Below, piece by piece: positions 24,536 through 41,998 of a stretch of DNA of 64,000 bases. The DNA comes from Nitrospirota bacterium. Lineage in GTDB: Bacteria > Nitrospirota > UBA9217. The notes under the pieces were generated by a model. The model was not told the origin of the DNA. It saw only the letters and a list, made by a program, of their open reading frames with translations, and searched no databases. The position numbers and the translations under genes are program-made. Where the stretch lies: contig DASPSR010000042.1 in assembly GCA_035623825.1 (NCBI GenBank), forward strand, positions 11,669-75,668. The letters are read 5' to 3'. Numbering within the stretch: the first letter of the stretch is position 1; the number at the start of each line of letters is the position of its first letter.

Positions 24536-24729
24536 CAAACCCTCCTCGCATTTGCCGGGGTTACTGTCCCGCTCACACCGCATCTATCCGGAACGAAGAG
24601 AAAACTTCTCGTGCAACTGCATCCGTAGCTTGTTGCACCGACAGCGGAATAGGACAAGCCCTCATCTGCAAAAGAACCAGATAAGTTTTTTTATTATAGT
24701 CAAGTCCGCTGAAATTATCAAGGTCGATT

Positions 24730-25821: not shown

Positions 25822-25944
25822 TAAAGACTCTCCGTGATGAAGCTCGAATCATGAACGAACATCATATGAACGTCAAGTGCCGAGCACAAAGCTCCAAGCG
25901 TCCTGAAATGCGCGCCCTTGAGCTTGTGATTTATTGCAGATTCA

Positions 25945-26823
25945 CTATTTGAAACTTGGGATTCCAATTTTCGTCCTCACAGGCTTCTCGTACACCATAT
26001 CGTTCTTAAGCGTGCGCAGCGCAAAGGCGTTCGAGATATTAATCAGGGATTCCGAGTGCCCCAAGAGGAGATACCCGCCCTCACGGAGCTTTTCGTAAAA
26101 ACTCTCGATCACCTTTTTCTTCGCCTCCTTGTCGAAATAGATGATGACGTTCCGACAGAAGATGACATCCATGTTACTAATCAGGCTGGTTTTATGCGGG
26201 TCAAGAAGGTTCAGGTAGCTGAACGAAACGAGCTCGCGCACCCGGTCGGCGATGCGGTAATTCCCTTTTTCCTCTTCAATGAAGTATTTCGCCAGCATCT
26301 CCGGGCTTGTCACCCGGTGCGCGCTTTTTTTATAGACTCCCTTGCGTGCGGTATGTAGAACCCTCTGGTTGATGTCGCTTCCCAGGATCTCCACACGCCA
26401 GTCGCGCCACCAGTCCCCGGACTCGAACAGGAGGATAGCGATGGTATAAGGCTCCTCCCCGGTGGAGCATCCGGCGCTCCATATCCGAAGAACCTTGCGA
26501 TCAGCAAGTGTCTCACGTAAGTCGGGCAAGATTTCCTCGGAAAAGGCGCGGAGCTGCGGGCCCTCGCGGAAAAAATAGGTCTCATTCGTGGTGAGGTTGT
26601 CCACGAGAATGGCGAGTTCCTCTTCCCTCTTCCGGTCATAGCGGAGAAAATGGTAATACTCTTCGAAGCTCTTGAGCTGACGCTGCTCGAGCCGGCGCGT
26701 GAGCCTGCGCTCCAGCAGGAACTTGGAGCCGTCGTCAAAGTAAATGCCGCAGTATCCGTGGATGAACTCCCGGAGAAGCCTGAAGATGTCGTCAGGCAGC
26801 GGAATTGTCATTTCTTCTAGCAT
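25945..26823 (-). CDS. cheR: Chemotaxis protein methyltransferase
   Basis: CheR N-terminal helical domain plus SAM-binding methyltransferase (VLRIWSAGCSTGEEPYTIAILL). Confidence 0.9.
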   Translation of the reverse strand: MLEEMTIPLPDDIFRLLREFIHGYCGIYFDDGSKFLLERRLTRRLEQRQLKSFEEYYHFLRYDRKREEELAILVDNLTTNETYFFREGPQLRAFSEEILPDLRETLADRKVLRIWSAGCSTGEEPYTIAILLFESGDWWRDWRVEILGSDINQRVLHTARKGVYKKSAHRVTSPEMLAKYFIEEEKGNYRIADRVRELVSFSYLNLLDPHKTSLISNMDVIFCRNVIIYFDKEAKKKVIESFYEKLREGGYLLLGHSESLINISNAFALRTLKNDMVYEKPVRTKIGIPSFK

Positions 26824-28818
26824 TTATCTCCTCAACGCATCCTTCGCGGCCTGTCGAACGGCCGTATCCGGATCTCCGTCGGCAATTCGCTCCAGCACAG
26901 GTTCGGCCGATGTGTCCTTTTTCTGCTTAACGATCTCTATCGCTGCCTTTCTCACGCTCCAGTGAGGATCGGACAATCGAGAAAAGATGATTTGCCGGAC
27001 AGAGGCCCAATGATAACCGGAAAGAGCCACGAGCACCGTTTTGCGCACCTCAGGATCGGCGTGGCTAGCGAGCCTGAGGAGCGGATCCAGCGCGAGCTCC
27101 GTTCTAAGCTTTCCCACGACATCCACGAGGGCAAGAAGAAAAATGTCCGTCGCTGTATCCAGATGCACCGCAAGAACCTCTCCGGCCTTCTCGCCGCCGA
27201 ACCTTCCCAGACCGCGTGCGGCAGCTGCCCGCACCCAGAGGTCGTCGTCCTCAAGGAGCGGGATGAGGATATCGGGAACTTCGGGGGCACTTGTATTGCC
27301 GAGCGCATCAGCGGCCATCATCCTGACCTCAGGGTCGTCATCGGTAACGGCGTGTATCAATGAACGTAGGGCCTTATCTCCCGAAATGTTGCCGAGAGCA
27401 CGGACAACGGCCTTTCTTACATCTGGCTCCTCGTCCTTGAGCGCAAAGGCAAGAGCATCGGCTGCCTTGTCGGTCGTGAATCTGCCGAGCAGGAGCGCGA
27501 TGTTCCTGCGCATGGGTGCGTCCCGAGACGTAAAGTCCTTTACAAGGTCATCGAGGGCGGACTCGTCGCCGATCTCCGCCAGTGCTCGTATTGCCGATTC
27601 CTGAACGCTCGGATATTCGTCTGTGAGCACATCAAGGAGTGGTTTGACGGCTTTCCGGCTCCTCAAGCGCCCGAGCGCCTCCGCTGCCGCGCTACGCACA
27701 TGACCGTTCTCGTCCATCAGTAGACCGATAAGGGGATCTTCAATATCCCGGCCCCCGGCGTCGCCGAGCACCCTCGCCACCGTCCTTCTCACGAGCGCAT
27801 TATCGTCGGAGAGATAACCCAGCAGAAAAGGCACACGGTCTCCGTCTATGTTCCTAAGCGCTTGTGCTATCGGTTCTTCCATGTCCTCATCTTTCAGAAG
27901 TGCAAGCAGTTTTTTGATGGAGGTCTCCCTCCCGGCCCACCCGAGCACCGCGACGGCCGACTTCTGGAGCTCTCCTGTGCTCGTGATGAGCATCTCTTCC
28001 AGAAGGTCTACTGCCCGGTCGTTCATGTTGGCACGAATAGTCCTTATCATGCGTTCCCGATCATCATGCGTGCTCTTTCGGTATATCGCAGTCAGTGCTA
28101 CCATAGCGACCTCGCGCACGATTCTAAGCGTATCGGCAAGGCCCGCGATGAGCGGCATAAGCGTATTGACATTACCAATCTTGCCGATTGATTCGATTAC
28201 CGGCTCTCTCAGGCTGCCCCGGCAGAGAGCTGCTATGAGCGGTCCGAGGGCTCGGTCGTCACCGATTTCTCCCAGAGCCTCGGCAGCGGCATAGTTAAGC
28301 CAGCTCTGGTGGTCTCGAGTCAGACAGGCAAGCAGCGGTTCGACTGCGCGGCGGTCCTTTATCTTGCCAAGCGCTTCGGCTGATGCCACACAGATATTAT
28401 CATCGGGGTCCTTTGCCAGTACCCCGATCAGGGCGGGTACGGCCCTTGAATCCCTGATATCTCCGAGGATGTCGACAATAAATTTGCGAACATCTGCATC
28501 CGGCGTTTCAAGGGATATAAGCAGGGCATCGACAGCTGGGGTGCCGATCTTGACCAGAGCTTCAATCGCCGAGTTCCGCGAACCGGCGTTGTCATCGGCG
28601 GAGAGGGACCGGATGAGCCCCTCGATGACATCATTGCTGCCGATTGCCACTAGTGCCTCGACTGCCGTCTTCCGGACTCGCCAGTCAGTATCACCCATGG
28701 CACTGAAGAGCAGGGGCACGGCATTCCGGCCTACGCGGCTAAGATCGACAGCCGCCTCCCGTCGCTCCTCCGCATCGCTATCCTGCAGTTTCTTCCTTAA
28801 AAATTCAAGATTCGGCAT
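26824..28818 (-). CDS. HEAT-repeat (PBS-lyase HEAT-like) protein, 664 aa
   Basis: Roughly 20 tandem ~30-aa repeats of the form VRxxAxxALGxIGdxxAvxxLixxL. Its stop abuts the cheR start, and its start overlaps cheW by 14 nt. Confidence 0.8.
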   Translation of the reverse strand: MPNLEFLRKKLQDSDAEERREAAVDLSRVGRNAVPLLFSAMGDTDWRVRKTAVEALVAIGSNDVIEGLIRSLSADDNAGSRNSAIEALVKIGTPAVDALLISLETPDADVRKFIVDILGDIRDSRAVPALIGVLAKDPDDNICVASAEALGKIKDRRAVEPLLACLTRDHQSWLNYAAAEALGEIGDDRALGPLIAALCRGSLREPVIESIGKIGNVNTLMPLIAGLADTLRIVREVAMVALTAIYRKSTHDDRERMIRTIRANMNDRAVDLLEEMLITSTGELQKSAVAVLGWAGRETSIKKLLALLKDEDMEEPIAQALRNIDGDRVPFLLGYLSDDNALVRRTVARVLGDAGGRDIEDPLIGLLMDENGHVRSAAAEALGRLRSRKAVKPLLDVLTDEYPSVQESAIRALAEIGDESALDDLVKDFTSRDAPMRRNIALLLGRFTTDKAADALAFALKDEEPDVRKAVVRALGNISGDKALRSLIHAVTDDDPEVRMMAADALGNTSAPEVPDILIPLLEDDDLWVRAAAARGLGRFGGEKAGEVLAVHLDTATDIFLLALVDVVGKLRTELALDPLLRLASHADPEVRKTVLVALSGYHWASVRQIIFSRLSDPHWSVRKAAIEIVKQKKDTSAEPVLERIADGDPDTAVRQAAKDALRR

Positions 28819-29332
28819 TGCCCGCCTCCGCCAGCGCTGAGCGCTCCTGCTGGCTTAAGATCTTGGTTATGTCAAGAAGAATTATAAGCCCGTCGGCCAC
28901 TTTCCCCATGCCGGTGATGAAATCGCCGCTCGCTCCCGTGGCCACTTCCGGCGCAGGTTCGATATCTTTTTTTGGAACATGGAGCACTTCGTTCACACCA
29001 TCCACGACCAGACCGATCAGACCTCTCCCGGTGCCATTAGCACCTTGGAGGGCGCCCCGCATGATCATCATGCGCATCTTCCGTGGATTGTCGTGAATCG
29101 TTGCCAGTGCAAAGCGCTTGCGCAAGTCAATGATAGGGATGATGGCTCCGCGCAAATTGATCACACCTTCTATAAACTTCGGCATCCGCGGAAGTGGTGT
29201 GATTCTGTGCGGGCGAACGATCTCGGTGATCGAATTGATCTCCAGCCCGTACACCTCCGGCCCTATGTGGAATGTAACGAGTTGAAGGGTTTCATCCGCA
29301 ACAACCGCCTGTTTTGCTTTCTTGTCGTTCAT
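28805..29332 (-). CDS. cheW: Chemotaxis coupling protein CheW
   Basis: 175-aa CheW domain (LVTFHIGPEVYGLEINSITEIV...INLRGAIIPIIDLR). Confidence 0.9.
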   Translation of the reverse strand: MNDKKAKQAVVADETLQLVTFHIGPEVYGLEINSITEIVRPHRITPLPRMPKFIEGVINLRGAIIPIIDLRKRFALATIHDNPRKMRMMIMRGALQGANGTGRGLIGLVVDGVNEVLHVPKKDIEPAPEVATGASGDFITGMGKVADGLIILLDITKILSQQERSALAEAGNAES

Positions 29333-29416: not shown

Positions 29417-31504
29417 TTACATCCTGAATTTCTGGATCTCATTCTTGAGCGAACCAGCCTGGTCGGCCATAATTTCCACGGCACTGTTGAGCCCAGCAGC
29501 CTGACTTGCATTTTCCTTGGCTATTTGCTTGATGCGCTCGATTGCCTTTACGATCATATTGCTGCCGGTCTGCACCTCACCTGTCGCTCTGTTCACCAGA
29601 GTGATCTTTGCGCTCATGTTCTCGACCGCCGCCGTGATGTCTTTCCCGGCCTTTGCCTGCCCTTCTGTTGATGTTCTGACAAATCGCGTGATCTCGCTCA
29701 TTTTCTCGGATGCCCGCGCAATCTGCTCACTGGCCGATTTCTGCTCATTAGCGGCCTTGGCGATCTGGAGGGTCATCCCGCTGATCCGTTCGACGGCTTC
29801 GCTTACCTGCCTGATGCTCCGCACTTGTTCTGCAGCCGCGCGGTTGATGCTCCTGCTCATGTCACGAGACTGGTCCGCCCGTTCCAGGATCTTTCGAAGT
29901 GTCTGACCCGCATCCTTGGAAAGCCGCATTCCCTCTTCCACGATAGCGACCCCTTCCTGCATGACTCCGGCGGCTACTTTGGATTCTTCCTGCACAGAAG
30001 CAATGAGATTGCCGATTTCCTGTGTTGATGCGGCCGTACGGTTCGATAGGTCGCGTATTTCCGCAGCCACCACCGAAAAACCCTTGCCGTGCTCTCCCGC
30101 CTGTGCCGCGAGGATCGCGGCATTCAGGGCAAGAAGGCCTGTCTGATCCGTAATATCCTCAATGACAGTAAGAATGCTCCCGATACTCTCGACGCGACCG
30201 ACGAGACGGTTCACCACATCGGCGGTCCGCCGCGCTGCTGCATCGATTCTGCCCATGCCCTCGATGGTCTTGTCGATAGAGTGCATGCCAAGTTGCTGGG
30301 CATCAGAGGCAACCGCCTCCGAAAGAGCAAGAGACTGTCTTGCGGTCTCCTCGACCTCTTTTACCGATGTGCTAATCTCGGACGATGACGCCGCTGTATC
30401 CGCTGCAGCAGCTGAAAGCAACTCGACGTTTCCAGCGATCTGCCGGATCGCGACGGACATCTGGGCTATAGCCGAAGTTGTTTCCTCGATAGATGCCGAA
30501 AGTTCGTGCATAGTCCGTGCCACCTCGTCCACAGAGGCGACCGTTTCGATCACGGATGAGGAGGTCTGCGTCGACGTTGCAAACAGGTCTTGAGCGGTTC
30601 CTGCGATTTCCTTGAGGGCAAAATGCATCTCGTTTACAGATGATGCCGCCTCGTCGACGGACTCGGCCTGCGTGCGGCTCCCGGTTGCTATCCGGGCGGA
30701 AGCTCCCTTGACTTCGGTTGAGACCGACTCCACATTCATCGCTGCCTGCTGTACATTTCCGATCATGCCCTTGAGTCCGGTGATCATGCGATTTAGTCCC
30801 CTCCCGAGCATCCCGAATTCGTCATGGGATGCGATGCGTACGCTCTGCGTGAGGTCTCCGGCGGCGATGTTCGATGCCACGGACACCGCTTCCTTCGTCG
30901 GCACAACGATCATCTTCCGCGCCATCATATAGACCATCGCAGCCAACGCGAGCACGATCGCAACGCTCGTTCCGAGCAGCAGGAATACTATTCCTCGGAC
31001 GTTCTGCTTCGCCCCAGTCCTCGAGAACCCCATCCAGACCGTGCCTAGCTTGGTTTCTCCGGTCTTGATGTCGACCGGGATTTCAAGGACATCGAACTGC
31101 GCCTTCACCTTGGCTGCAAGTGCGGGCGCGCTGTCCGATGTGTTCTGCAAGAGGAATTCATGCAGTTCGGGATTCTCCCGGTTGAAACTGGTTACGACAT
31201 TGTTCAAGACCGCGTCCGACGAATCCGTAACATAGGTGTAAAGCATATCCTGAGTTTTGACCGCATCGGCAACAAGGCTTTCAAGCTTTTTCATGTCTTT
31301 CTGGAGAATTGGGTCCGTTACTGCCTTGCCGAGGAACATTCCCAGATCCTTCCCGTGCGTCTCGATATGCCGGTACTGATCGGCTGACATGGTCCGGGCT
31401 ACAAAGGCCGTGCCCAGAACCATAAGCGCAAGAATAACACCGGTGATTACGACGGCGAGCTTTAAGCCCATGCTTGCCTCGATCTTTTCCTTCAGATCCA
31501 GCAT
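29417..31504 (-). CDS. Methyl-accepting chemotaxis protein with a periplasmic sensor domain, HAMP, and a long methyl-accepting signalling domain
   Basis: TM1, a periplasmic region of about 140 aa, TM2, HAMP, then the MA domain (LLALNAAILAAQAGEHGKGFSVVAAEIR). Confidence 0.9.
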   Translation of the reverse strand: MLDLKEKIEASMGLKLAVVITGVILALMVLGTAFVARTMSADQYRHIETHGKDLGMFLGKAVTDPILQKDMKKLESLVADAVKTQDMLYTYVTDSSDAVLNNVVTSFNRENPELHEFLLQNTSDSAPALAAKVKAQFDVLEIPVDIKTGETKLGTVWMGFSRTGAKQNVRGIVFLLLGTSVAIVLALAAMVYMMARKMIVVPTKEAVSVASNIAAGDLTQSVRIASHDEFGMLGRGLNRMITGLKGMIGNVQQAAMNVESVSTEVKGASARIATGSRTQAESVDEAASSVNEMHFALKEIAGTAQDLFATSTQTSSSVIETVASVDEVARTMHELSASIEETTSAIAQMSVAIRQIAGNVELLSAAAADTAASSSEISTSVKEVEETARQSLALSEAVASDAQQLGMHSIDKTIEGMGRIDAAARRTADVVNRLVGRVESIGSILTVIEDITDQTGLLALNAAILAAQAGEHGKGFSVVAAEIRDLSNRTAASTQEIGNLIASVQEESKVAAGVMQEGVAIVEEGMRLSKDAGQTLRKILERADQSRDMSRSINRAAAEQVRSIRQVSEAVERISGMTLQIAKAANEQKSASEQIARASEKMSEITRFVRTSTEGQAKAGKDITAAVENMSAKITLVNRATGEVQTGSNMIVKAIERIKQIAKENASQAAGLNSAVEIMADQAGSLKNEIQKFRM

Positions 31505-32097
31505 CAGATCCTCCCGAGTGCACGCACCGCATGAAGCGGGCCCGTCACGTTCCTCATCTCATGATTTCCGCGCGCATACCTCATGCGCTCTGGACGGCTG
31601 ACAATCCGAGATACTGACAGTCTGAGAAAGAGTATAAGAATGATAAAAATGGCGGGATACTCGAACAGGGCGCCCGCTGCATAGGCCGCAGGCTTGCTGT
31701 CGAGATCGGCGGGGTATACGGAGATGCGGTTTTCTCCCGGCCTTCTCTGGTCCAGAGAGATCGGAAGCGGCCCAATCGTGATGCGTTTGTCGGCGAGAAC
31801 TGGCTTTCCGATATGACCGAGCGATTTCCTGCTGATGTCGGTTACTGTCAGCTCCTGAGCATCGGGCCGAGACAGAAAATTTTGATCCATGATGTCTTTC
31901 CCGCTGAGGTTCGTCATCAGCAGATACGGCGCGGCACGCTCAGGTATGAGCTTAAAGAACTGTTCCCCATTGATCCGGGTATTTGCCAGAATATTCCGTG
32001 TCTCCGCGAAATACCGGCCAGTCCCGATCAGGCTCATGGTCACAAAAAGCCCCGAAACGGTCAGAAAAATGATGCTTTGTCGAACACCAATCTGCAT
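31504..32097 (-). CDS. Small two-TM membrane protein with a ~120-aa periplasmic domain, translationally coupled (ATGA overlap) to the downstream MCP
   Basis: N-terminal TM (IIFLTVSGLFVTMSLIG), a periplasmic segment, a second TM (YPAIFIILILFL) and a short tail. Its stop TGA overlaps the MCP ATG at 31502-31506. Confidence 0.5.
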   Translation of the reverse strand: MQIGVRQSIIFLTVSGLFVTMSLIGTGRYFAETRNILANTRINGEQFFKLIPERAAPYLLMTNLSGKDIMDQNFLSRPDAQELTVTDISRKSLGHIGKPVLADKRITIGPLPISLDQRRPGENRISVYPADLDSKPAAYAAGALFEYPAIFIILILFLRLSVSRIVSRPERMRYARGNHEMRNVTGPLHAVRALGRI

Positions 32098-32201: not shown

Positions 32202-34295
32202 TTAAAACTTGAAACCTTGCAACTCCGCCTGGAGCGCATCTGCCCGCGACTTCAGCGTCTGCGCTGCCATATCCATCTCGACCGACACATCGACGTTTTC
32301 CCGGGTGATATTCTGGATGCGGTTGACCGCGTTGCTAATCTGCTGCGCCCCGACGCTCTGTTCTGATGTGGAGCGAGCGACCTGGGTGGCCTGCGTCTTC
32401 ACTGAATCGATGGTATTGGCAATATGCCTGCTTCCAGTGGTCTGTTCTTGGATTGCTATCTTCATCTGCCGGGTGATGTCACGCATCTTTTCCGAGGCGT
32501 TAGCTATCCGCTCGCTACCTCTCCGCTGCTCTTGCATTGCGCCTGCGATCTGCTCGATCTGGCTTGCGATACTGACAGCGGCCTCCGTGATCTGGGAAAT
32601 ACCCCTGGTCTGTTCCGCTGTCGTCCTCTCAATGGCACGGGCCATGTCCGCTGACTGCTTCGAGCTGTCCGAAACCTGCTGCAGCACGTCGCTGGTCACG
32701 TGCACGAGAGCGGAGCCGGTCTCAACGGCCTTGAGACCTCTATCCATGGCCTGCATGCTTTGTTCCGTTTCTTCCCGCACAGCGACGATCAGGCTCGTGA
32801 TCTCCTGGGTCGAGGCCGCGGTGCGCTCGGCCAGGTCCTTGATCTCTTCGGCCACCACCGCGAATCCTTTCCCGTGTTCTCCAGCCTGAGCAGCGAGAAT
32901 AGCGGCATTCAACGCGAGGAGGCTCGTCTGATCCGTTACTTCGTCAATGACCTTCAATATCTGGCCGATCTCTTGGGAGCGTTTGCCGAGGCGGTTTACC
33001 ACGTCCGCTGTCGCCTCGACAGTTTCCTTGATGTTGTTCATCCCCCGTATCGCCTCTTTTGCCGCGTTCATCCCGCGGTCCGAGGCCTCTGTCGAGACCC
33101 GTTCCGCCAGCTGGGCAGCTTCCAAAGCGCGTTGTTCGACTTCTTTCACCGTGGAACTCATCTCAGTGATGGACGACGACGTCTGTTCCGCTGATGCTGA
33201 GAGCGTCTCCGTATTTTCAGACACCTGTTTAATGGAAGCAAGCATCTGCTCGATGGACGACGCCGTGTCCTCGGCCGCCGCGGAGAGTACGCCAGCGTTT
33301 TTTGCCACCTCTTCGACCGATGAGGCCATTTCCGACGCTGACGATGAGACATCCGTTGCTGCTTGGGACATTTCACTTGCATTTTCCGCGACTCCCTTGA
33401 TCGAGGCGTTCATCTGATTCACGATCGTCGCGGTCTGTTCGGTGGCCTCCTGCTGGACCTTGGCGCCTTCACCCATCTTCACCGTGGCGCTAGTCATGAG
33501 TTTCATGGCGTCGCCCAGGCTCCCGCTCGTCTGCTTGATCTTACCAAGCATCTCCCGCAGGTTCGATGACATCGTGTTGATTGCCGACCCGAGGGACATA
33601 ATCTCGGACCCTCCCGCGGCAGTGATCTCCCGAGAGAGGTCTCCTGCGGCCATCATGGCCGCAGTCTTCGACATATCTGTTATCGGCTGAGTGATTTGCC
33701 TATCAACAAACAGGTTGACTAGAGCCAAGGCCACCAGAAAACTGATGACACCTACCACCAGGGACCACATGAGCAGGCTGTGGACCTGTCTGTTGACCGC
33801 CGACTCTTTCAACGCAATGCGGAAAACCCCGATCTTCTTTCCATCGACACTCATAAGAGGAATGACTTGCTCATAGTGTCCCCCGTGGGCATCTGAATAC
33901 GAATGGACCATGGGCGCTGTTGCCGCGATCGCGTTCCTAGTGGGCTCATCGTTTAACACCGTGCTCTCCATTGTCTTGTCGCTCGAATAGAGCACCTTGC
34001 CATCCGTGTCCAAAACCATGGCCCGCGAGAGGTCCTTGTCTTCATCCGCCAGTCCGCGAAGTTTGTCCCCCATGCCGTCAAGCGCGTTCAGGGGAAGTCC
34101 GAACCCCACGGCCTTGGTAATGTCCTTCTTGATGCCATCGGCAAGAGAAGCGGTCCTGGCGATGAGCGCTTCCTTGTACCTGCTTGTTGCACTATAAATG
34201 TTGATCAGCGTATTGAACGCCAACACCAGCAGGAGGATGCTGGACGTCACAAGCACGGCTCTGTTCTTCAGATTCATTGAGGTTAGTATTTTCAT
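32202..34295 (-). CDS. Methyl-accepting chemotaxis protein (second paralogue)
   Basis: Same architecture as the first MCP; signalling-domain core LLALNAAILAAQAGEHGKGFAVVAEEIK. Confidence 0.9.
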   Translation of the reverse strand: MKILTSMNLKNRAVLVTSSILLLVLAFNTLINIYSATSRYKEALIARTASLADGIKKDITKAVGFGLPLNALDGMGDKLRGLADEDKDLSRAMVLDTDGKVLYSSDKTMESTVLNDEPTRNAIAATAPMVHSYSDAHGGHYEQVIPLMSVDGKKIGVFRIALKESAVNRQVHSLLMWSLVVGVISFLVALALVNLFVDRQITQPITDMSKTAAMMAAGDLSREITAAGGSEIMSLGSAINTMSSNLREMLGKIKQTSGSLGDAMKLMTSATVKMGEGAKVQQEATEQTATIVNQMNASIKGVAENASEMSQAATDVSSSASEMASSVEEVAKNAGVLSAAAEDTASSIEQMLASIKQVSENTETLSASAEQTSSSITEMSSTVKEVEQRALEAAQLAERVSTEASDRGMNAAKEAIRGMNNIKETVEATADVVNRLGKRSQEIGQILKVIDEVTDQTSLLALNAAILAAQAGEHGKGFAVVAEEIKDLAERTAASTQEITSLIVAVREETEQSMQAMDRGLKAVETGSALVHVTSDVLQQVSDSSKQSADMARAIERTTAEQTRGISQITEAAVSIASQIEQIAGAMQEQRRGSERIANASEKMRDITRQMKIAIQEQTTGSRHIANTIDSVKTQATQVARSTSEQSVGAQQISNAVNRIQNITRENVDVSVEMDMAAQTLKSRADALQAELQGFKF

Positions 34296-35221
34296 TTGAT
34301 CACCTTCGTCGCGTCTGTAAGTAGATCGATGGGCACCTTGATTCCCATATCATTCGCTTCCTTGAGGTTCAGCACGAGCTCAACCAGCCGAGGGACCTGC
34401 GGGGGAATGCTCGCTGGGTTTTCGCCTTTGAGAAGACGCGCGACGATATGCGCCGCTGCTTCACCTTGTTCCACAGGGCTCGCCGCGAGCGTCAGGATAA
34501 CCCCCTTCTCAGCTGAACCGCCGGTCTGGCTGATCGTGGGTATCTTGGTTCCATGCGCCGTTTTCACGATGGTATCGATCGCCTCGTTTGCGGCCGCGCT
34601 GACAGATATGAACACTGCATCCGCCTTGCCTGCAAACACAAGCTTTCGGGCATCGTCGACCTTTTTAATCGGCATTCTCACCGTCTGGAATCCGTACTGG
34701 CTCTCAAGCTGAGCCAGCTCATCTGCCTGCTTCATGGAATCGGGTTCCGATTCATTGTAAATAATAGCGACCTTCGTGAAGGGCGTGATTTTTTTCAGGT
34801 ATTTTAACAAGCTTGTCATCGGCACCTTTGAGCTTATGCCCGTCATATTCCTTGCCGAAACACCAACTGATCCCGGATCATAGACGCCTGCATACACGAG
34901 CGGAATATCCTTTGTCTCCTTGATCGATGCGAGTGCCGCCGGCGCGCCGTAGGTCACGAGCACATTGACATCGGCCACCACCAGCTTCCGGGCTGAGTTC
35001 GTCCAGGACATCGGATCGGGCGAGGGCATCTGCAGCACCGTGTCGACCTTTCGGAAGTCGAACCCCTCCTTGGCCAGGGTGCCTACGAAGGTCTTATGCA
35101 CTTCCTGATAGTACCCGACGTTCCCGGACATGATCACGCCTACGGTCTTGTCCGCCGCCTCGACCGTCGCTGCGCAGCACACCAGCGTAATCGTTAATAA
35201 CCAGTTTAGTCGTCTCATCAT
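34292..35221 (-). CDS. Periplasmic substrate-binding protein (ABC_sub_bind / BMP-like family), translationally coupled to the MCP
   Basis: Signal peptide MMRRLNWLLTITLVCCAATVEA and a type-I periplasmic-binding-protein fold. A 4-bp ATGA overlap links it to the MCP start. Confidence 0.7.
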   Translation of the reverse strand: MMRRLNWLLTITLVCCAATVEAADKTVGVIMSGNVGYYQEVHKTFVGTLAKEGFDFRKVDTVLQMPSPDPMSWTNSARKLVVADVNVLVTYGAPAALASIKETKDIPLVYAGVYDPGSVGVSARNMTGISSKVPMTSLLKYLKKITPFTKVAIIYNESEPDSMKQADELAQLESQYGFQTVRMPIKKVDDARKLVFAGKADAVFISVSAAANEAIDTIVKTAHGTKIPTISQTGGSAEKGVILTLAASPVEQGEAAAHIVARLLKGENPASIPPQVPRLVELVLNLKEANDMGIKVPIDLLTDATKVIK

Positions 35222-35228: not shown

Positions 35229-37187
35229 TTACCATTTCATGGACAGGGTGGCCAATAGAGTTGCAAACTCGCCGTCCTGGGTGTTGTCAATTTTATCGTC
35301 ATACTGCTGATACTGGTAGCGGATCTCTCCGTCCGTGTTCTTGCCGAGCCCCATTTGAACACCGAAAGCATAGACGGTGTCGACGACCCTCATATTCGAT
35401 AACTCAGGGATTCCTCCCACGTTGGTCACGCTGCTCGTCCCTGTAAGGCAGAAATTGCCCCGCGAGTAGCTCCTGCTTCCCGATGCCGTGAGATTCATTC
35501 TATCTATCGGAGAATAAGTCAGTGCAAGTGATCCTACGTGGGCAATGTCTGCGTAAGGGACACCTGGTTCGAGCGACAAAGCGCCTGTCCCGTCTTGAAA
35601 GGTGACGGTCTGATTGACATTGTTTTGGAAGTAGGAGTAGCTCGCCGTGATCGAAGAGCGGTTGCCGACCAAGAGCGTAACGCTGGCAAGGCCCTGATCG
35701 CGTCTGACCTCCCTGCTCCCGCCGGCCAGAGGCGCCACCAGATCATTCCGGCTCTCCCGCACAGTACTGTAACTGAGCAGGGTATTGATCCTCGTCGCAG
35801 GCGTCCAGGTGAGCGATGCCTGTCCAGACTGCGCCCGGTCAGGGTCGGTATCGTAGGCCGGGTTGTTAATCGCCGTATAAGCATAATCCCCGCGGAAGGT
35901 AAGCCTATTCATGATGCGGTACGCAAGTTCTATCCTCGCTGTTCCCTTGGTGGTCTTATCCGGCAGGTCCCAGAATGCCTGGCCGCCTGGAGGAAATGGC
36001 AGAGAGGTCCCAGGAACCCCTACGGAGCGGTCAATCATGTCCAAGACATACTGGCCCTTAAATGTCAGACGGTCGGTTGCCCGGTAACGGATTGTTCCAT
36101 CCACAACGTCCCGTGTCGAAGAGATGGCGTCCCTGACACTGTTCGGGCCACTGACTATGGTGGGGACTGGGGTTATGTTATTGACCATGCTGGGGTTGCT
36201 TTCATCCTTATCGTAGTGCCGATATTTGAGGACGAACATCACGCTGGTCACGGGCAATAACATAAGGTCGCCCCCCGCATTCCAGTATTGCACCTTCGCT
36301 CCGCTGGAGTCATTTTTTGAGTCCCCGTTCGTGACAGTACCCGCAGCAACTACTTTCCCTGAATACATCGTGTGGATCTTCACCGTATCGGACGAGGATT
36401 CAAGAGTGGGAGTTAAATTATGCGGGACCGGATTGGACCCTGGGGCGTACGTGTCGTACAGTACGTTGCTGTCGTACGATGTGAACCGCTTATCCATGTG
36501 GCTGTAATCAACTTCTACCGGTCCGAGGTGGCTGTTCGCGCCAACCGTAACCTCCCGTGTAAACCAATCGATATCCCTGGACTCTGAGATCTTGTTGAGG
36601 CCACCGGAAAATCCGCGCAAGAATATCTGCTGTATGGTCCCTTCCCGCTCGACGGTCCGCAGGTCTGCGTACAGGTGGAAAGGATAGTCCGGCGTCTTAA
36701 AGCGGATGAATCCATTCTCCAGCCTGTTCTCAGCGCCATACATGGCCCCGGGGTTTAAGTCGGTGAAGGTCGGCGTGCCTGGCGGCGCTGGTGCGGGAGG
36801 AAGATTTTCGGTTAAATGATTAAGATTATGGAACATGTCTCTCGCAACCCAGTTAAAGAGCACGATATCCTTGAAGGCGTAATCCGTCTCAACGAAGTAA
36901 TCCTTGGTATTCAAATAATAGGACTCAACTGCAACGCGGTGAGGCAGCGGGTCCCATTCCAGGTCCAGCGCGCCGATGGCAGAAGACCTGAGATAATCAT
37001 ACTCTCCGGCGTGAGCGGGATTCCCTTCCTGATCTATAGTCCGATAGCCCAGGCTGATCCTGCCTTCAAAGGCCTCCAGACGCTCCCCCGCAGCGGTCTC
37101 TGCCGTGCTTGTCCCCGAGGGTTGCTGTGCTAGAACCGGGGAGGCCCAGAGCATCAAAAATGCGATTATGAGAATGGTCTTTTTCAT
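35229..37187 (-). CDS. MtrB/PioB-family outer-membrane beta-barrel porin (porin-cytochrome conduit sheath)
   Basis: Signal peptide MKKTILIIAFLMLWASPVLA. 652 aa with an alternating amphipathic beta-strand pattern rich in Y/T/G/N/D. The C-terminus is ...LSMKW. It lies immediately downstream of two decahaem cytochromes in mtrC-mtrA-mtrB order, and the sizes (644/341/652 aa) match Shewanella MtrC/A/B (671/333/697). Confidence 0.7.
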   Translation of the reverse strand: MKKTILIIAFLMLWASPVLAQQPSGTSTAETAAGERLEAFEGRISLGYRTIDQEGNPAHAGEYDYLRSSAIGALDLEWDPLPHRVAVESYYLNTKDYFVETDYAFKDIVLFNWVARDMFHNLNHLTENLPPAPAPPGTPTFTDLNPGAMYGAENRLENGFIRFKTPDYPFHLYADLRTVEREGTIQQIFLRGFSGGLNKISESRDIDWFTREVTVGANSHLGPVEVDYSHMDKRFTSYDSNVLYDTYAPGSNPVPHNLTPTLESSSDTVKIHTMYSGKVVAAGTVTNGDSKNDSSGAKVQYWNAGGDLMLLPVTSVMFVLKYRHYDKDESNPSMVNNITPVPTIVSGPNSVRDAISSTRDVVDGTIRYRATDRLTFKGQYVLDMIDRSVGVPGTSLPFPPGGQAFWDLPDKTTKGTARIELAYRIMNRLTFRGDYAYTAINNPAYDTDPDRAQSGQASLTWTPATRINTLLSYSTVRESRNDLVAPLAGGSREVRRDQGLASVTLLVGNRSSITASYSYFQNNVNQTVTFQDGTGALSLEPGVPYADIAHVGSLALTYSPIDRMNLTASGSRSYSRGNFCLTGTSSVTNVGGIPELSNMRVVDTVYAFGVQMGLGKNTDGEIRYQYQQYDDKIDNTQDGEFATLLATLSMKW

Positions 37188-37200: not shown

Positions 37201-38226
37201 CTACTGTATGAAATGGCCCTGGCCGCTTGGTGACGGCAGGTCCGAACCGTGTATCTGTGAATGGCAGTCCGTGCACCGCGTATAGAATGCTGTCTTCTGC
37301 GCGGCAGTCGTCGCTGCAGCCGGGGGCGCACTGACGATCGGGTGGGTCGGATGGCACTGCAGGCAGAGGAACGGCTCGCGCAGGAGGAGCAGGTTGCTGT
37401 TCACCGACCCGTGCGGCGTATGGCAGGCGCGGCAATCGTCGGTAAGGTCAGCATGCTCGTACACAAACGGGCCCTGCTTCTCCGCATGGCACTGGGTGCA
37501 GGTTGCCTTCACCGTTTCCCGCCTCAGGTTCCTCTCTCCGCCTCCGCCATGCGGATCGTGGCAGTCGGTGCAGAACACCTTCTTTTCCGGCACGGGATGG
37601 TGGTTCGGCAGGGAGAACGCAGCCTGCACGTCCTGGTGACAGCGCTCGCACATTTCTGCTGTGTCTTTGAGCTTGACCTTGAGGTTGTGTCCTCCGTGGA
37701 TCTTATGGCAGTCGGAACACGACACGTCGGCAACGTTGTGGATGCTCGAATTCCAGTTATGCAGGTTGAACGTCGCGTTGGCCGTATGGCACTTCAGGCA
37801 GATAAGTGATTTTGCCTGGGCGGGCAGGTTCTTGATGTCGATTAGGGTCTTGAAGTCGCAGGCCGTCTTCTTTCCGGCCTTGGCATCGGCAGCGAGCCTC
37901 TGCGGTGTCAGAGGATCTATGGCGAGGCTGCCCGGACCGTGGCAGCTCTCGCAGTTCACCAGCGGCAGACCCGATTCCCTCGAGAGCTGAGCGCCCATGG
38001 TCGAGAGGTCGAAATCGCGCCTCTTCTGGTCGTGCTCGTGGCATGCCTTGAGGCAGTTATCCGTGCCTACATAGTCGGCGTCGAGCCGGCCGGCAATCAT
38101 CTTCTCGTAATCCTTGATCGGGAAAATCGGCCTTGCTTCCTTGAGAGCCGCACATCCAGCGGCAAAGAAGGCGCCGAGAATCCCGATTGCCAGCCATTTC
38201 TTCCATGTGAATAGTCGTTCCATCAT
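37201..38226 (-). CDS. Periplasmic decahaem c-type cytochrome, MtrA/DmsE/PioA-like
   Basis: 341 aa with a signal peptide. There are 9 canonical CxxCH motifs (CESCH, CLKCH, CSDCH, CERCH, CTDCH, CTQCH, CRACH, CLQCH, CTDCH) plus one CxxxCH (CLKACH). Confidence 0.8.
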   Translation of the reverse strand: MMERLFTWKKWLAIGILGAFFAAGCAALKEARPIFPIKDYEKMIAGRLDADYVGTDNCLKACHEHDQKRRDFDLSTMGAQLSRESGLPLVNCESCHGPGSLAIDPLTPQRLAADAKAGKKTACDFKTLIDIKNLPAQAKSLICLKCHTANATFNLHNWNSSIHNVADVSCSDCHKIHGGHNLKVKLKDTAEMCERCHQDVQAAFSLPNHHPVPEKKVFCTDCHDPHGGGGERNLRRETVKATCTQCHAEKQGPFVYEHADLTDDCRACHTPHGSVNSNLLLLREPFLCLQCHPTHPIVSAPPAAATTAAQKTAFYTRCTDCHSQIHGSDLPSPSGQGHFIQ

Positions 38227-38252: not shown

Positions 38253-40187
38253 TTAGGGCCGTTCTGCCTCGCTTCCGAATCCACCCGGGTATGCGCCATT
38301 CCAGAGCGGCCCGTTTGGAAGAAGATATGCCTTGGCTCCCTGGCACCAGGCGGGCGGTGTGCCGCCGCTGCACGCGGTGCTGAGAGTCGCACCGACCGAA
38401 TAGTTCATTATCCCGTCATCGAGCCAGTCGAGAGAGTCGTAGATCAATCTTTTCGCAAACCTGCTGTTATGCACATAGGCGCCCCATTCATGAGTGAGGA
38501 GGCTGAAGTTAAACGCGGCACCCAGATTGTTTTTGCCGGTCGTGTTGCCCGTTATATCCGCATCACCGGCGGAAAGCCAGTTTTTGTTGGCGAAATACGG
38601 ATAATTGGTGGTGAATGTATAACCGGATATAATGAGCTCTGCTTGGAGTGCCTGCAAGGCAGAATCGAAGTTGTTCTTTTCGTCCTGCACTACCGTACCA
38701 AAATCTATGCTGGAACCGGCATGGCAGGCAAAACAAACCGCGCTCGATACAACGATGTTCCCCATATTCGTACTGATTGGCTCAAAGAGATGGTTGCCAC
38801 TCATGCCCGTCCGGTCCATATGGCATCCGACGCAAGGGCCGTTCGAGCCGGTGTTCGGGGCATTTGGCGTGCCGATCTGATTGTGCTTGAACGAAGCGGG
38901 GTCAGCATAGTTCCTCCCGGCATATACGTACGGCGTGCCCTTGAACATCGTTCCGCCTGCGGAGAGGTAGTGTCCGTCAGGGAAACTGAAATTGCTGAAA
39001 TTCACGGTTGCTGTCTGTCCGGTATTCAAATCGCTGACCGCCGTGCCGTTTACGCGCCCCGTGTGGCAGGGAATACAGACATTCGAGATGGATAGATCAG
39101 GGTACTGGAAATATGCTGTAGAGCTCGGGGCGGAGCCGATCGTATACGTTGCCTTATAGGCTCCCGGATTCCTGAGGTCACCCGCATTGTCTGTGTGACA
39201 GCCTCTGCACTCGAGCATTTCGGGCTTGAAGTTCAAAGCAGAGGGTACAAGCGCTATGCCGCCGGCTACAATGGTTGCGGCCAATGATTGGTTTCCCGCC
39301 TGAAGCGCATCGGCATACGTCGCAAAACCGGTTGTCGTATGACAGCGCTGACAGGCGGTCCTGCTCGCCAGCGACCAGTCGTAATGAGCCCAGGCATCTG
39401 CCGCAAGCATATCCGCATGCTTCGAACTGGCCCAATCTCTGTTGATGTCGGCATTCTTATGCGGATTGTGGCAGTCGGTACAGACGGTATCGCTCGCAAA
39501 ATTCATGGCATAACCGGTAATATTATTGCTATTTTGACTAGTTCCTGACGCCCCCCAGTTGCCGGGGGTGGCAAAGTGCGTGTCAGTGATAACGTATTGA
39601 GTTCCATTGGGGGCAGGTGCCCCTGCTAAATGGGTCGGCGAAGCATTAAGAGCTCCTGTTGAGGTATCGAGCAGATTATGACAAGCCGTGCACATGACGA
39701 ATTGTCCAGAGACCGCTACGGCGCCGAAGCTTGTCCCCGTCGTGTTCGAAAGGAGGGATATCGGCCCGGCCCCGCCGGCATCTGCATGCAGGCTCCCGGG
39801 ACCGTGGCAAGCCTCGCAGCCGACCACCGGACGAGGAACATTCCCCGTGTATCCTGCTGTGAGATTGTTGCTGTCCCCGTCAGGGTCATGACAACTGATG
39901 CAGCCTGAGCCGCCTGCCTGGACAAGACCCACTGTCGGAACGCCTGCACTGTACAGGTTACCTGCAGGATCGAGATTCCCGTGTTTGCTCATAAGCCAGT
40001 CGGCTGTTTCGGTGGTATGACATCCTGCGCACCTATTCAGTCCTGCAGTCGTAGTCGCTGCAGAAAGAACGCTTGAAGTCGCCGGCCCGATAGCCGAATC
40101 GGACTTGCCGCAACCTCCGAGCATGGCGATACATGCAAGCATGAAAAGAAAAACGAGGACTGTTCTGCTTCCCTTCTTTGTATTCAT
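38253..40187 (-). CDS. Outer-membrane lipoprotein decahaem c-type cytochrome (functional analogue of MtrC/OmcA)
   Basis: Lipobox MLGGCGKS. Ten CxxCH motifs (CAGCH, CISCH, CEACH, CTACH, CTDCH, CQRCH, CRGCH, CIPCH, CVGCH, CFACH). 644 aa. Confidence 0.8.
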   Translation of the reverse strand: MNTKKGSRTVLVFLFMLACIAMLGGCGKSDSAIGPATSSVLSAATTTAGLNRCAGCHTTETADWLMSKHGNLDPAGNLYSAGVPTVGLVQAGGSGCISCHDPDGDSNNLTAGYTGNVPRPVVGCEACHGPGSLHADAGGAGPISLLSNTTGTSFGAVAVSGQFVMCTACHNLLDTSTGALNASPTHLAGAPAPNGTQYVITDTHFATPGNWGASGTSQNSNNITGYAMNFASDTVCTDCHNPHKNADINRDWASSKHADMLAADAWAHYDWSLASRTACQRCHTTTGFATYADALQAGNQSLAATIVAGGIALVPSALNFKPEMLECRGCHTDNAGDLRNPGAYKATYTIGSAPSSTAYFQYPDLSISNVCIPCHTGRVNGTAVSDLNTGQTATVNFSNFSFPDGHYLSAGGTMFKGTPYVYAGRNYADPASFKHNQIGTPNAPNTGSNGPCVGCHMDRTGMSGNHLFEPISTNMGNIVVSSAVCFACHAGSSIDFGTVVQDEKNNFDSALQALQAELIISGYTFTTNYPYFANKNWLSAGDADITGNTTGKNNLGAAFNFSLLTHEWGAYVHNSRFAKRLIYDSLDWLDDGIMNYSVGATLSTACSGGTPPAWCQGAKAYLLPNGPLWNGAYPGGFGSEAERP

Positions 40188-40292: not shown

Positions 40293-40955
40293 CTACGCCC
40301 CTACCGCTTTGTGCAAGTCCAGCAGGATGTAGAGCCTGTCGTCTTTTCGCGCTATCCCCTTTAGGAACTCTGCACCTTGTTCGATGGTCTCCGGTGCAGG
40401 ACGGACGGCGTCCGGTGAGATCCGTACCACCCCGGTCACCTGATCCACGAGAATTCCCGCGTTCTCGTCATCTGGGCTTATAATGATAATCCGCGCCTTC
40501 TCGTCCCTCACGGCGGGCGGAAGGCCTAGCCGCCTTCCGAGATCCAGTACTGGCAGGACCGTTCCCCGGATCGATGTCACCCCGATGACATGTGACGGTG
40601 AATTGGGGACCATGGTGAGCTCCCTGCTTTTCAGCACTTCCTGTACATCATCTACGGGCAGGACATACTCTTCACTGCCGAGGCGGAACGAGAGCATCTC
40701 GATCTCCTGTGTGTGAATTCCACTTGCCACTCCTTCTTCAGGCTCCGGCGTGTCCCTTCTTCCGATTTCTTCCACTGCGGCGTGTTTGGCCGCTTCCGGT
40801 TGTTTCCCGACAGCTGGAGATGACGGCACAGGGCTCGCGCTGCCAGAGGGCTTTTCCGTCTGGGCAGGTTGAGCAGGGGCCGTTTCTTCGGTCTCGAGTT
40901 TGTTTTGTGTGCGTGTCCACTCCGCTGCCTTTTTCCGCGCTGCCAAGATATCCAT
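40293..40955 (-). CDS. CheW-like protein with a ~90-aa low-complexity, Pro/Ala/Glu-rich N-terminal extension
   Basis: C-terminal CheW domain (LSFRLGSEEYVLPVDDVQEVLK...SIRGTVLPVLDLGRRLG). Confidence 0.8.
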   Translation of the reverse strand: MDILAARKKAAEWTRTQNKLETEETAPAQPAQTEKPSGSASPVPSSPAVGKQPEAAKHAAVEEIGRRDTPEPEEGVASGIHTQEIEMLSFRLGSEEYVLPVDDVQEVLKSRELTMVPNSPSHVIGVTSIRGTVLPVLDLGRRLGLPPAVRDEKARIIIISPDDENAGILVDQVTGVVRISPDAVRPAPETIEQGAEFLKGIARKDDRLYILLDLHKAVGA

Positions 40956-40984
40956 AGGTCGCTAACGCTCCTACCGAAAAAAAC

Positions 40985-41866
40985 TTACAGAGAGCAGAGG
41001 ACATGGGACATATGGGAAACCATGGCCCCTCTTCTCTTTGCCTCATGCCGAATGCCCTTTCCGTCCTTCGCCCGCCCTTCTCTCACTATGCTCTCGATGA
41101 TCTCCTGGTCTATTATCTTGAGGCCCTTGCCGAAACCTTCAACGAGCGCATTGCCCGCAATGGTGTTGATAATGCGCGGAACGCCTCCTGAACGCTCGAA
41201 CAAAGCCGTGTTCGCTTCTTCATCAAAGAGCAGCGTTTCCCTCCCCGCTACCCGGAGCCGGTGCTTCACGTACTCTCGTGTCTCGTCCTCGTCAAGCGGG
41301 CCCAGGTGATACTGCATTCCGATCCTCTGCCGAAGCGCCCTGTACTGGCGTCGGTCGAGCCGCTCCCCGAGCTCTGTCTGGCCGATAAGCAGGATCGCGA
41401 GAAGGTTGCGGTCATCGAGCTGGAAATTCGTAAGCAACCGCAGTTCCTCGAACGTGGCCTTGCCGGAGATAAGCTGCGCTTCGTCAATGATGACCACCGG
41501 TCGCTTCCCGGCCTCGAAGAACTCATACAGCTTTGCATTGATTCCCTCAATGATGCTGTGGCAATCCCGGCTCGAGCACTCCATCTCGAGGCCGAGGGCC
41601 ACGGTTCTCAGAAGATGTAGCGGCGAAAGCCGCGGGTTGATTATCAGCATCGGATGAAAGCTCCCGTCCAGCGAATCGATGAGCGCACGGGAAATCATCG
41701 TCTTGCCCGTACCGATATCGCCGGTCAACAGGGCAATGTCCTGGTCCTCTGCCGCAAGCTGTAGCCGGGCGAGGGCCTCGGCATGCTTGGCGCTCTGGTA
41801 GAAAAAACGCGGGTCAGGCGTCTTTTTGAACGGCTTTTCGCTCAGTCCGTAAAATTCTTCATACAT
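40985..41866 (-). CDS. ExeA/GspA/MshM-like AAA ATPase (AAA_22)
   Basis: Walker A GDIGTGKT and Walker B VVIIDEAQ. The N-terminus YGLSEKPFKKTPDPRFFYQS is typical of the ExeA family. Confidence 0.7.
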   Translation of the reverse strand: MYEEFYGLSEKPFKKTPDPRFFYQSAKHAEALARLQLAAEDQDIALLTGDIGTGKTMISRALIDSLDGSFHPMLIINPRLSPLHLLRTVALGLEMECSSRDCHSIIEGINAKLYEFFEAGKRPVVIIDEAQLISGKATFEELRLLTNFQLDDRNLLAILLIGQTELGERLDRRQYRALRQRIGMQYHLGPLDEDETREYVKHRLRVAGRETLLFDEEANTALFERSGGVPRIINTIAGNALVEGFGKGLKIIDQEIIESIVREGRAKDGKGIRHEAKRRGAMVSHMSHVLCSL

Positions 41867-41998
41867 AATTTAAGTCCCCGGGCCAGACGACAGGTACTAG
41901 ATTGAAGCTTTTCTTTTTGCCCGCTTATTCTGTCTGAAGTCCATTATCTGTTATCTGCCCTCGTTCCTTATTCCCCCGTCTTTGCCTCCGCCCGTGGT

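Follow-up and report, generated by a model that had tools for sequence, protein, structure and literature searches.

A PF04392 substrate-binding protein encoded between a porin-cytochrome conduit and a chemoreceptor in Nitrospirota: a candidate periplasmic co-sensor

The substrate-binding protein (SBP) encoded at 34292..35221 on the minus strand of a Nitrospirota contig probably acts as a dedicated periplasmic co-sensor of the chemoreceptor encoded next to it, serving no transporter. We analysed a stretch of 64 kb (GenBank assembly GCA_035623825.1, contig DASPSR010000042.1, positions 11,669 to 75,668), hereafter called the window, which is the part of the host genome that was inspected. The SBP is an exported PF04392 protein with no transporter genes nearby. 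It is expressed as a coupled pair with a Cache-type methyl-accepting chemotaxis protein (MCP), here named MCP1, and a conduit of the MtrA/MtrB type is inherited along with the pair. In another phylum, members of this SBP subfamily go with a haem-bearing kinase. The comparison draws on a genome scan with one genome per species (35 loci), a metagenome scan with a 13-sequence SBP subgroup (74 loci), and a set of 102 non-redundant loci of the SBP subfamily, in 82 of which the next gene is readable.

The SBP gene and its junction with the receptor gene

All genes of the SBP block lie on the minus strand, according to the list of open reading frames (ORFs) and our reading of the DNA. The 652-amino-acid (aa) ORF of a porin ends in TAA, which is followed by the Shine-Dalgarno-like sequence GGGAGGG and then by ATGATG, which opens the SBP ORF. 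Counted from the first ATG (35221) the SBP has 309 aa, and from the second (35218) it has 308 aa; public gene calls start it at the second ATG (P0001, 308 aa). The spacing between porin and SBP is 7 bp to the first ATG, as the initial annotation had counted it, and 10 bp to the second. The SBP gene ends with ...AAG GTG ATC AAA TGA, and the start ATG of MCP1 lies inside the ATGA at 34292..34295 of the minus-strand DNA, exactly where the initial annotation had placed a 4-bp overlap between the two genes. The overlap is preceded by GGTGATC, encoded by the invariant C-terminal K-V-I-K of the SBP; this heptamer is complementary to the 3' end of the 16S rRNA.

The junction is kept in related loci. 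ATGA closes the SBP gene in all 39 of the related genome-derived loci listed, and in 36 of them the longest ORF of the next gene starts at or upstream of the overlapping ATG and in frame with it. In two of the remaining three the next gene is cut or uncalled, and the third (L040) has a 7-nt gap. The 4-nt overlap is retained down to 49% SBP identity, L040 being 40% identical. Counted over loci that are related by descent and not phylogenetically independent, and with the receptor-linked and kinase-linked variants described below taken together, the SBP gene ends in ATGA in 83 of 102 loci, a Shine-Dalgarno-like GGTGAT stands in the last SBP codons, for (K/R)-V-I-(K/E), in 54 of 100, and the Val codon at this C-terminal site is GTG in 57 of 78 cases (73%), as against 34% elsewhere in the same genes. 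These counts point to selection at the nucleotide level that favours coupling the translation of the SBP to that of the protein encoded next. Promoter-like sites in 29000-45500 number 13 against 9.0 +/- 3.5 in shuffled sequences, which is no clear excess, and the promoter and terminator scan of the same region found no noteworthy internal terminator.

Family, export and binding cleft of the SBP

The initial annotation described the SBP as of ABC_sub_bind or BMP type and asked for a comparison with profile hidden Markov models. The first half of this label stands: PF04392 (ABC_sub_bind) matches with E=1.1e-37 and 130.3 bits against a cut-off of 25.9, over profile positions 18-293 of 293. The second half does not, since the Pfam scan lists no PF02608 (Bmp) match at E<=0.01, and we rejected a BMP-type identity for this protein.

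The SBP carries a predicted Sec-type signal peptide, MRRLNWLLTITLVCCAATVEA|ADKTVGV, in which a positive n-region, a hydrophobic core and a VEA|AD cleavage site can be recognized by inspection, the mature protein then starting with ADKTVGV. Across 22 homologues the N-terminal ~22 residues vary, and the sequence is nearly invariant from A22, K24, G27 and V28 onward. The strictly conserved part starts right where the mature protein is predicted to begin, which supports the signal-peptide reading. The lack of a signal peptide or of periplasmic localisation had been named initially as evidence that would speak against a sensory partner, and what we find instead is a predicted signal peptide with conservation starting from the mature end.

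Three relatives in the PDB, 3LKV, 3LFT and 6HNI, match the SBP with E values of 1e-18 to 1e-21. These are VC_1101 with Phe (3LKV), SP1069 with Trp (3LFT) and CD0873 with Tyr (6HNI), which hold the amino and acid groups of their ligands in one common way and are the sole PF04392 members with a defined ligand. Six polar positions, given here in the numbering of the 308-aa form, are invariant in the three structures and would be the amino-acid ligand contacts lining the cleft. The sensor-linked SBPs mostly have other residues there: T92 is replaced by A, G or S, Q96 by L (with Q or E occurring too in the kinase-linked group), T/S113 by Y, D130 by S or F, D207 by S, and N208 by A or S. Y90, G91, Y113, P115, G127, S207, Q251 and G252 are conserved in both the MCP-linked and the kinase-linked SBPs. 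This pattern fits a cleft that has been kept with a changed specificity, and an amino-acid carrier would not fit it. Since the residues that bind amino acids in the solved relatives are lost, ligand presentation by this SBP may be non-classical. An AlphaFold2 (AF2) model of the SBP, built with 22 close homologues, has a mean pLDDT of 66 and falls below 50 at residues 113-131, 233-246 and 274-308; because of the low values around the presumed cleft we dropped it for the analysis of fold and pocket. The relatives of the SBP also include proteins of 900-1500 aa (P0170, P0174-P0180 and others) with two to five tandem PF04392 domains.

The SBP could also be an ordinary transport protein, for instance for an aromatic amino acid or a metal chelate, whose ABC partner is encoded elsewhere and whose adjacency to an MCP gene reflects co-regulation or a second role like that of MBP. 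The SBPs of PF04392 belong to ABC importers, and the three solved ones all bind aromatic amino acids; the chemoreceptor-stimulating SBPs of E. coli and P. aeruginosa are transport proteins, Soares et al. 2024 (PMC11492766) proposed that similar operons of Geobacterales serve transport, and our inspection covered 64 kb of genome. However, Pfam scans found no ABC permease or ATPase domain in the long ORFs of the window, a six-frame motif scan of the 64 kb found no ORF combining a Walker-A motif with LSGGQ, and the sole polytopic ORF flagged in the six-frame scan is a CopD-like one of 171 aa. The statement of the initial annotation that no permease or ATPase is adjacent is thus borne out within the 64 kb, and the ABC operon that would contradict it is absent there. 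Among ~100 related loci, none has ABC transporter genes in the SBP operon. The TrpX equivalog model NF041285 gives the SBP 122.6 bits, far under its cut-off of 390, the polar residues of the transport-type relatives are replaced, and the 4-nt overlap with a transducer gene is conserved across phyla. We consider a transport role quite improbable.

The receptor and the conduit

MCP1 (32202..34295, minus strand, 697 aa) is built of a first transmembrane segment (TM1), a periplasmic single-Cache domain of ~140 aa (about residues 35-175), a second transmembrane segment (TM2), a HAMP domain and a signalling coiled coil of ~450 aa. The MCPsignal (156.5 bits, 7.9e-46) and HAMP (38.6 bits, 1.3e-9) matches are both over their cut-offs. 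The match to sCache_3_2 is weak, with 25.3 bits (1.8e-5) under the gathering score of 28.4, and MCP1 orthologues of a sister clade match sCache_3_2 at E<=1e-5, values that are not marked against the cut-off. A model of the WalK sensor plus HAMP matches residues 36-274 at 1.3e-17. A homologue search with the N-terminal 255 aa returned 10 proteins, nearly all truncated, and the AF2 model of this region based on them has a pLDDT of ~85 in the periplasmic part, showing a long helix, a five-stranded sheet and the second membrane helix. Its best PDB matches are the WalK extracellular domains 4YWZ, 5IS1 and 7DUD (TM score 0.74-0.79, rmsd 2.5-2.9 A); the top fold match is the WalK-YycH model, and CitA and DcuS rank next. 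By this model the sensor is a small single-Cache/PDC fold. Its sequence contains no Cys or haem motif. The cytoplasmic part of MCP1 after the HAMP domain (32202-33550) has ~448 aa or ~64 heptads, a length that would fit the 40+24H class of Geobacteraceae.

Three conduit genes in the order MtrC-like, MtrA-like and MtrB-like lie immediately upstream of the SBP gene on the same strand, and outer-membrane electron transfer is predicted for their products. The first encodes a probable surface decahaem lipoprotein (38253..40187, 644 aa) with 10 CXXCH motifs and the lipobox LGGC, which matches PF22113, the MtrC/MtrF domain II/IV, with 53.4 bits against a cut-off of 30. The second encodes a periplasm-facing decahaem cytochrome of the DmsE/MtrA family (37201..38226, 341 aa, 10 CXXCH), which scores 251.4 bits with TIGR03508 (cut-off 192.2), 245 bits with the GSU2203/OmcK family (under its cut-off of 325) and 3.9e-28 with Paired_CXXCH_1. 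The third is the porin gene (35229..37187, 652 aa), whose product is an MtrB/PioB-like outer-membrane barrel with a signal peptide and the C-terminus ...LSMKW. It scores 27.7 bits with PF11854, over the cut-off of 23, and stays under the cut-offs of two NCBIfam models, with 120 bits against 350 for the GSU2204-family NF041027 and 30.9 bits against 240 for TIGR03509. The best NCBIfam match of the porin is the GSU2204 family, which consists of CXXCH-containing (seleno)proteins of the MtrB/PioB type; the porin itself has a single Cys and no CXXCH.

Conservation of the gene order

The DNA of the window is also present in peat metagenomes, and its named relatives are metagenome-assembled genomes (MAGs) of Nitrospirota. 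About 30 species-level genomes of Nitrospirota share the order cytochrome-porin-SBP-MCP1, their SBPs being 60-88% identical to that of the window, and the full order of these loci is CheY-CheA-ATPase-CheW-[MtrC-like]-MtrA-like-porin-SBP-MCP1-(third MCP)-MCP2-CheW-HEAT-CheR-CheB. Taken over che-embedded loci, sister-clade cassettes and fragmentary loci, the identities to the window proteins are 52-85% for the MtrA-like cytochrome, 40-88% for the SBP, 37-89% for MCP1, 32-74% for the porin and 39-76% for the MtrC-like protein.

The sister clade, i.e. Thermodesulfovibrionales and Ca. Sulfobium with SBPs 40-52% identical, has the compact unit of MtrA-like cytochrome, porin, SBP and sCache_3_2-MCP alone. 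Unrelated housekeeping genes surround these cassettes, in no fewer than four different contexts: one genome has ClpA/ClpS and GuaA/GuaB on the flanks, a second has pyruvate phosphate dikinase and haem biosynthesis, and a third has hydrogenase and formate dehydrogenase. Around the sister-clade cassettes we found no che genes, no homologue of the MtrC-like cytochrome of the window and no ABC genes. Since the four-gene cassette occurs without che genes, the SBP-MCP pair belongs with the cytochrome-porin pair and not with the che cluster as such. A cassette of the Nitrospirota type (identities of 72-80% for its SBP, MCP1 and MtrA-like cytochrome) was also seen on a contig labelled 'Betaproteobacteria bacterium MAG281' (L005/L018, JBLMWN010000142.1), where an error of binning or labelling is probably the cause rather than lateral transfer.

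An exhaustive profile search showed that the close SBP clade falls into one 50% cluster. Beyond it there are many PF04392 relatives of 30-47% identity that have motifs such as PDPxSWxNAARK and, at the C-terminus, ATxVIK in common. The dominant order in the metagenome loci is MtrA-like decahaem cytochrome, porin, PF04392 SBP, PhnD-like SBP and sensor histidine kinase. The MtrA-like cytochrome of this variant is 55-64% identical to that of the window, and the PhnD-like SBP belongs to PF12974 (E ~1e-57). The kinase consists of a periplasmic helical domain with a single CXXCH, a HAMP domain, an optional PAS/GAF domain, HisKA, HATPase and an optional receiver; a CXXCH lies within the first 180 residues of all 30 readable kinases that follow a PhnD-like gene. 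By its sequence this protein resembles a redox sensor kinase that works through haem and is attached to the conduit. One SBP of the variant (L046) is named from MAGs of Desulfobulbaceae and Desulfobacteraceae, and the theme of an SBP with a sensor therefore spans at least two phyla. Examples of the kinase variant on Desulfobacterota-type contigs (among L045-L094) are L064 7782-11101 and L046 8001-11328. Where the next gene after the SBP is readable (82 loci), it is an MCP gene in 33 loci, a PhnD-like SBP gene in 48 (with the haem kinase next wherever the DNA extends that far), and a gene for an MtrC-like protein plus an MCP gene in one. That one locus combines an MtrA-like cytochrome, porin, SBP, a 12-haem MtrC-like protein and an MCP.

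The kinase variant bears on an alternative in which the two proteins have independent functions, MCP1 sensing directly through its Cache domain and the SBP serving as a periplasmic chaperone or tether for the porin-cytochrome complex, with the overlap ensuring co-expression. The place of the SBP gene between the conduit and receptor genes, 7 bp after the porin stop, agrees with such a division of labour, and single-Cache domains often bind small ligands directly, as do CitA and DcuS, which came next in our fold search. But 11 loci of the kinase variant lack the conduit and still keep the SBP together with its partners: the PhnD-like SBP gene is kept in 11 of the 11, and the kinase is visible in nine, where the DNA extends far enough. 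Since these conduit-less loci keep the transducer partners, the link of the SBP to the transducer is closer than its link to the conduit. The well-studied MtrCAB and MtoAB systems are not known to need such an SBP-like protein, which also counts against a chaperone or tether. We regard this alternative as highly improbable.

The SBP might instead contact the MtrA-type cytochrome and signal to the receptor, through protein contact, the redox state or occupancy of that cytochrome, in which case the cleft would be vestigial and the conduit would be an antenna for the redox potential outside the cell. The four genes are inherited together, the cytochrome is the best-conserved part across phyla with its 55-64% identity in Desulfobacterota-type loci, and the periplasmic c-type haem motif in 30 of 30 variant kinases points to redox sensing. 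The loss from the SBP of the polar residues of its ligand-binding relatives would also agree, as would the resemblance of the MCP1 sensor to WalK, which is regulated by partner proteins. However, inspection of the mature SBP revealed no Cys or haem motif, and the ancestral cleft positions are still conserved with other residues (Y90, G91, Y113, S207, Q251), for which a retained pocket is the better fit. The 11 conduit-less loci, moreover, keep the SBP. A redox adaptor of this kind is in our judgement unlikely, although less so than the other two alternatives.

Proposed role

The initial annotation had proposed that the SBP and the MCP form a plausible ligand-input module, and the conserved SBP-MCP linkage, the overlap and the absence of transporter genes in ~100 loci support it. 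As a dedicated co-sensor, the SBP would be translated as a coupled pair with MCP1 and would dock on the WalK-like single-Cache domain of MCP1, switching the receptor by what the SBP has bound. Such docking would be analogous to that of LuxP-LuxQ, TorT-TorS and AioX-AioS, and BasB and CosB are thought to act alike on archaeal transducers. The conduit might produce the cue, let it in or report it; candidates are a redox-active metal or organic compound and a redox state. Since the SBP-MCP1 pair is inherited with the conduit genes, the cue is most likely tied to the conduit; given a co-sensor role, we see the case for a cue derived from the conduit, for which gene linkage is the basis, as about evenly balanced. 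The signal would enter the CheA/CheW/CheY/CheR/CheB pathway, which comes with PATAN, GAF, HEAT and AAA-ATPase proteins and one with a cyclic di-GMP (c-di-GMP) motif. In view of these proteins the output may be surface behaviour, instead of or besides swimming, and we infer a behavioural or surface-colonisation response.

We also speculate that the MtrA/MtrB-type conduit might work as a sensory antenna, signalling to the periplasm whether minerals, humics or partner cells are present outside the cell or what their redox state is, instead of or besides being a respiratory outlet; this is a tentative idea and in our estimate more doubtful than the co-sensor role itself. The PF04392 fold would then turn the report of the conduit into a conformational signal for an MCP in Nitrospirota or for a haem kinase in Desulfobacterota.

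Several points weigh against a dedicated co-sensor, or against its tie to the conduit. The search covered 64 kb of genome, and an ABC partner of the SBP could lie farther off. In the published survey cited above (PMC11492766), similar operons of Geobacterales are interpreted as transport systems; the 'ABC transporter substrate-binding protein' and 'ATP-binding protein' beside the MtrAB-like genes of such an operon may be two SBPs and a kinase. The 11 kinase-variant loci without a conduit indicate that the SBP-sensor pair can work without one, and a haem motif, present in the kinase of the distant variant, is absent from MCP1, so that the two variants may sense differently. A mirror-tree comparison of the SBP with the periplasmic domain of MCP1, over the 11 loci with all proteins complete, gave a partial r = -0.07 after the CheA/ATPase background was removed, which is no sign of co-variation beyond that of the phylogeny.

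How bacteria find and respond to insoluble electron acceptors and donors is poorly understood, and the routes known to have been proposed are indirect, for example energy taxis or the use of soluble Fe(II) as a stand-in. For such sensing, a module of receptor and SBP that is genetically tied to an outer-membrane conduit, in Nitrospirota as well as Desulfobacterota, is a concrete and testable molecular candidate. If the conduit did act as an antenna, bacteria from at least two phyla would have a modular means of sensing, through the outer membrane, electron acceptors or donors that are insoluble. A co-sensor role would add PF04392 to the SBP families used for signalling, and transporter-type annotations beside MtrAB-like genes may denote sensor parts instead. 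The matter concerns abundant uncultured Nitrospirota of peat and groundwater that have the Wood-Ljungdahl pathway.

Comparison with known systems

The activation of receptors by SBPs is well documented, and the principle of a dedicated SBP co-sensor is already known; its joining to PF04392 and to an electron conduit appears to be new and has a real chance of being more than a further instance. In the BasB-BasT and CosB-CosT systems of Halobacterium salinarum, as in the window, the SBP gene lies directly upstream of the gene of its chemoreceptor and away from transporter genes (PMC8050422). Unlike the window pair, these systems are archaeal, use other SBP families (for amino acids and compatible solutes), have known ligands and have no link to a conduit. 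According to the same review of 2021, SBPs that stimulate chemoreceptors are encoded together with transporters, Halobacterium basB/cosB being the exception; the Pfam name ABC_sub_bind is not mentioned in this review of SBP signalling.

In the pairs MBP-Tar, RBP/GBP-Trg and DppA-Tap of E. coli and PstS-CtpL of P. aeruginosa, a ligand-loaded periplasmic SBP activates a chemoreceptor, as we propose here. MBP, RBP, GBP, DppA and PstS differ from the window SBP in being parts of ABC importers, with genes that lie with the transporter genes and not with the receptor gene, and Tar, Trg, Tap and CtpL have four-helix-bundle or HBM domains as against the single Cache of MCP1. AioX-AioS, LuxP-LuxQ and TorT-TorS are like the window pair in that a transporter-less SBP is encoded beside its sensor, but their transducers are histidine kinases, they have no PF04392 protein, and they lack any link to a conduit of porin and cytochromes. 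The substrate that AioX reports is that of a respiratory enzyme, and an sCache-like domain has been modelled in AioS. PF12974, the family of the PhnD-like SBP of the kinase variant, is the family of AioX too. TrpX, CD0873, VC_1101 and SP1069 belong to the same Pfam family as the window SBP with clear homology, but they bind Trp, Tyr or Phe, and TrpX and CD0873 are found in ABC import systems.

WalK, which works with YycH and YycI in Firmicutes, has the same single-Cache fold as the MCP1 sensor at a sequence identity of 16-17%. It is governed by accessory proteins and not by a known small ligand. WalK differs from MCP1 in being a Gram-positive histidine kinase, and its partners are membrane-anchored proteins and not SBPs.

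The gene order of the conduit, MtrC-, MtrA- and MtrB-like, is that of MtrCAB in Shewanella. Compared with MtoAB/PioAB and with OmcK(GSU2203)-GSU2204 of Geobacter, the window barrel matches the MtrB/PioB family of Pfam over the cut-off and the GSU2204 family under it, and is without the CXXCH of GSU2204. Unlike MtrCAB, MtoAB and PioAB, the window conduit shares its cassette with an SBP and with a signal transducer; those conduits are described as respiratory or Fe(II)-oxidising machinery and are not known to have a receptor attached. Our searches of the literature turned up no account in which a porin-cytochrome conduit is combined with an SBP and either a chemoreceptor or a kinase, and for GSU2203-2206 and GSU1228-1231 we found only tables of expression and single-nucleotide polymorphisms.

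Compared by gene order, the core CheA-ATPase-CheW of the window equals GSU2222-GSU2221-GSU2220 in che cluster 5 (beta group, Esn) of Geobacter sulfurreducens, the window ATPase having the position of GSU2221 between esnC (cheA) and esnB (cheW). Transposon mutants in GSU2221 are impaired on electrodes, and the Esn pathway affects electrode colonisation and the extracellular matrix. The che clusters of the beta group contain no mcp genes and no conduit or SBP is reported for them, whereas the window cluster has two MCPs and the remnant of a third. Geobacter che cluster 5 also has HEAT, PATAN, CheR and CheB genes.

Other features of the window

The block of conduit, SBP and MCP1 is embedded in one long che operon on the minus strand. 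The upstream half (40293..46340) has five genes, which encode a PATAN/DUF4388-GAF protein with an MshEN-like c-di-GMP motif (45195-46340), CheY (44100-44471), CheA (41999-44008), an AAA_22 ATPase (40985-41866) and CheW (40293-40955). Five genes also make up the downstream half (23714..29332), encoding a second CheW (28805-29332), a HEAT-repeat protein (26824-28818), CheR (25945-26823), CheB (24730-25821) and a GAF protein (23714-24583). The first gene of the operon (45195-46340) scores 46.6 bits against a cut-off of 38 with NF053729, the MshEN-type motif, and its GAF match is weak; there are hints here that the che pathway is tied to c-di-GMP. The AAA_22 ATPase is related to the ATPase associated with XrtA/PEP-CTERM systems, with 227 bits for TIGR03015 under the cut-off of 324.

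A direct duplication of ~320 bp, with copies at 44286-44606 and 45014-45333 that are 92-95% identical with one indel, spans the PATAN/GAF 3' end and the first half of cheY. Between the copies lie ~407 bp of AT-richer unique DNA, and a truncated cheY fragment is left upstream of the intact cheY. The identical metagenome contigs L001 and L002 have the duplication, and L004 does not.

Downstream of MCP1 the operon encodes the second chemoreceptor, MCP2 (29417..31504, minus strand, 695 aa; MCPsignal 3.1e-41, HAMP 8.6e-11), whose position is kept in related loci. Between the two receptors lies an ORF of 197 aa (31504..32097, minus strand), which we had considered as an additional partner protein and rejected as such, since it is the truncated N-terminus of a third MCP. 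Its residues 1-169, comprising TM1, a short loop and TM2, are 61% identical to the N-terminus of an MCP of L007, and the relic abuts MCP2. The L007 counterpart is a 943-aa MCP that ends in a PhnD-like PF12974 domain after the signalling domain, and the third chemoreceptor is intact in related genomes with 640-980 aa. A further SBP gene copy occurs in one genome of Nitrospirota (L027 13137-14063, 68% identical to the window SBP); it precedes the third MCP, there without the fused PhnD-like domain.

The rest of the window holds Wood-Ljungdahl and housekeeping genes. The Wood-Ljungdahl block (531-19453, minus strand), downstream of the che operon, encodes ACS/CODH subunits, a corrinoid protein and a methyltransferase, together with MTHFR with an HdrA/MvhD-like partner and formate-dehydrogenase/NuoEF-like subunits. 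This block marks the host as a strict anaerobe with the reductive acetyl-CoA pathway.

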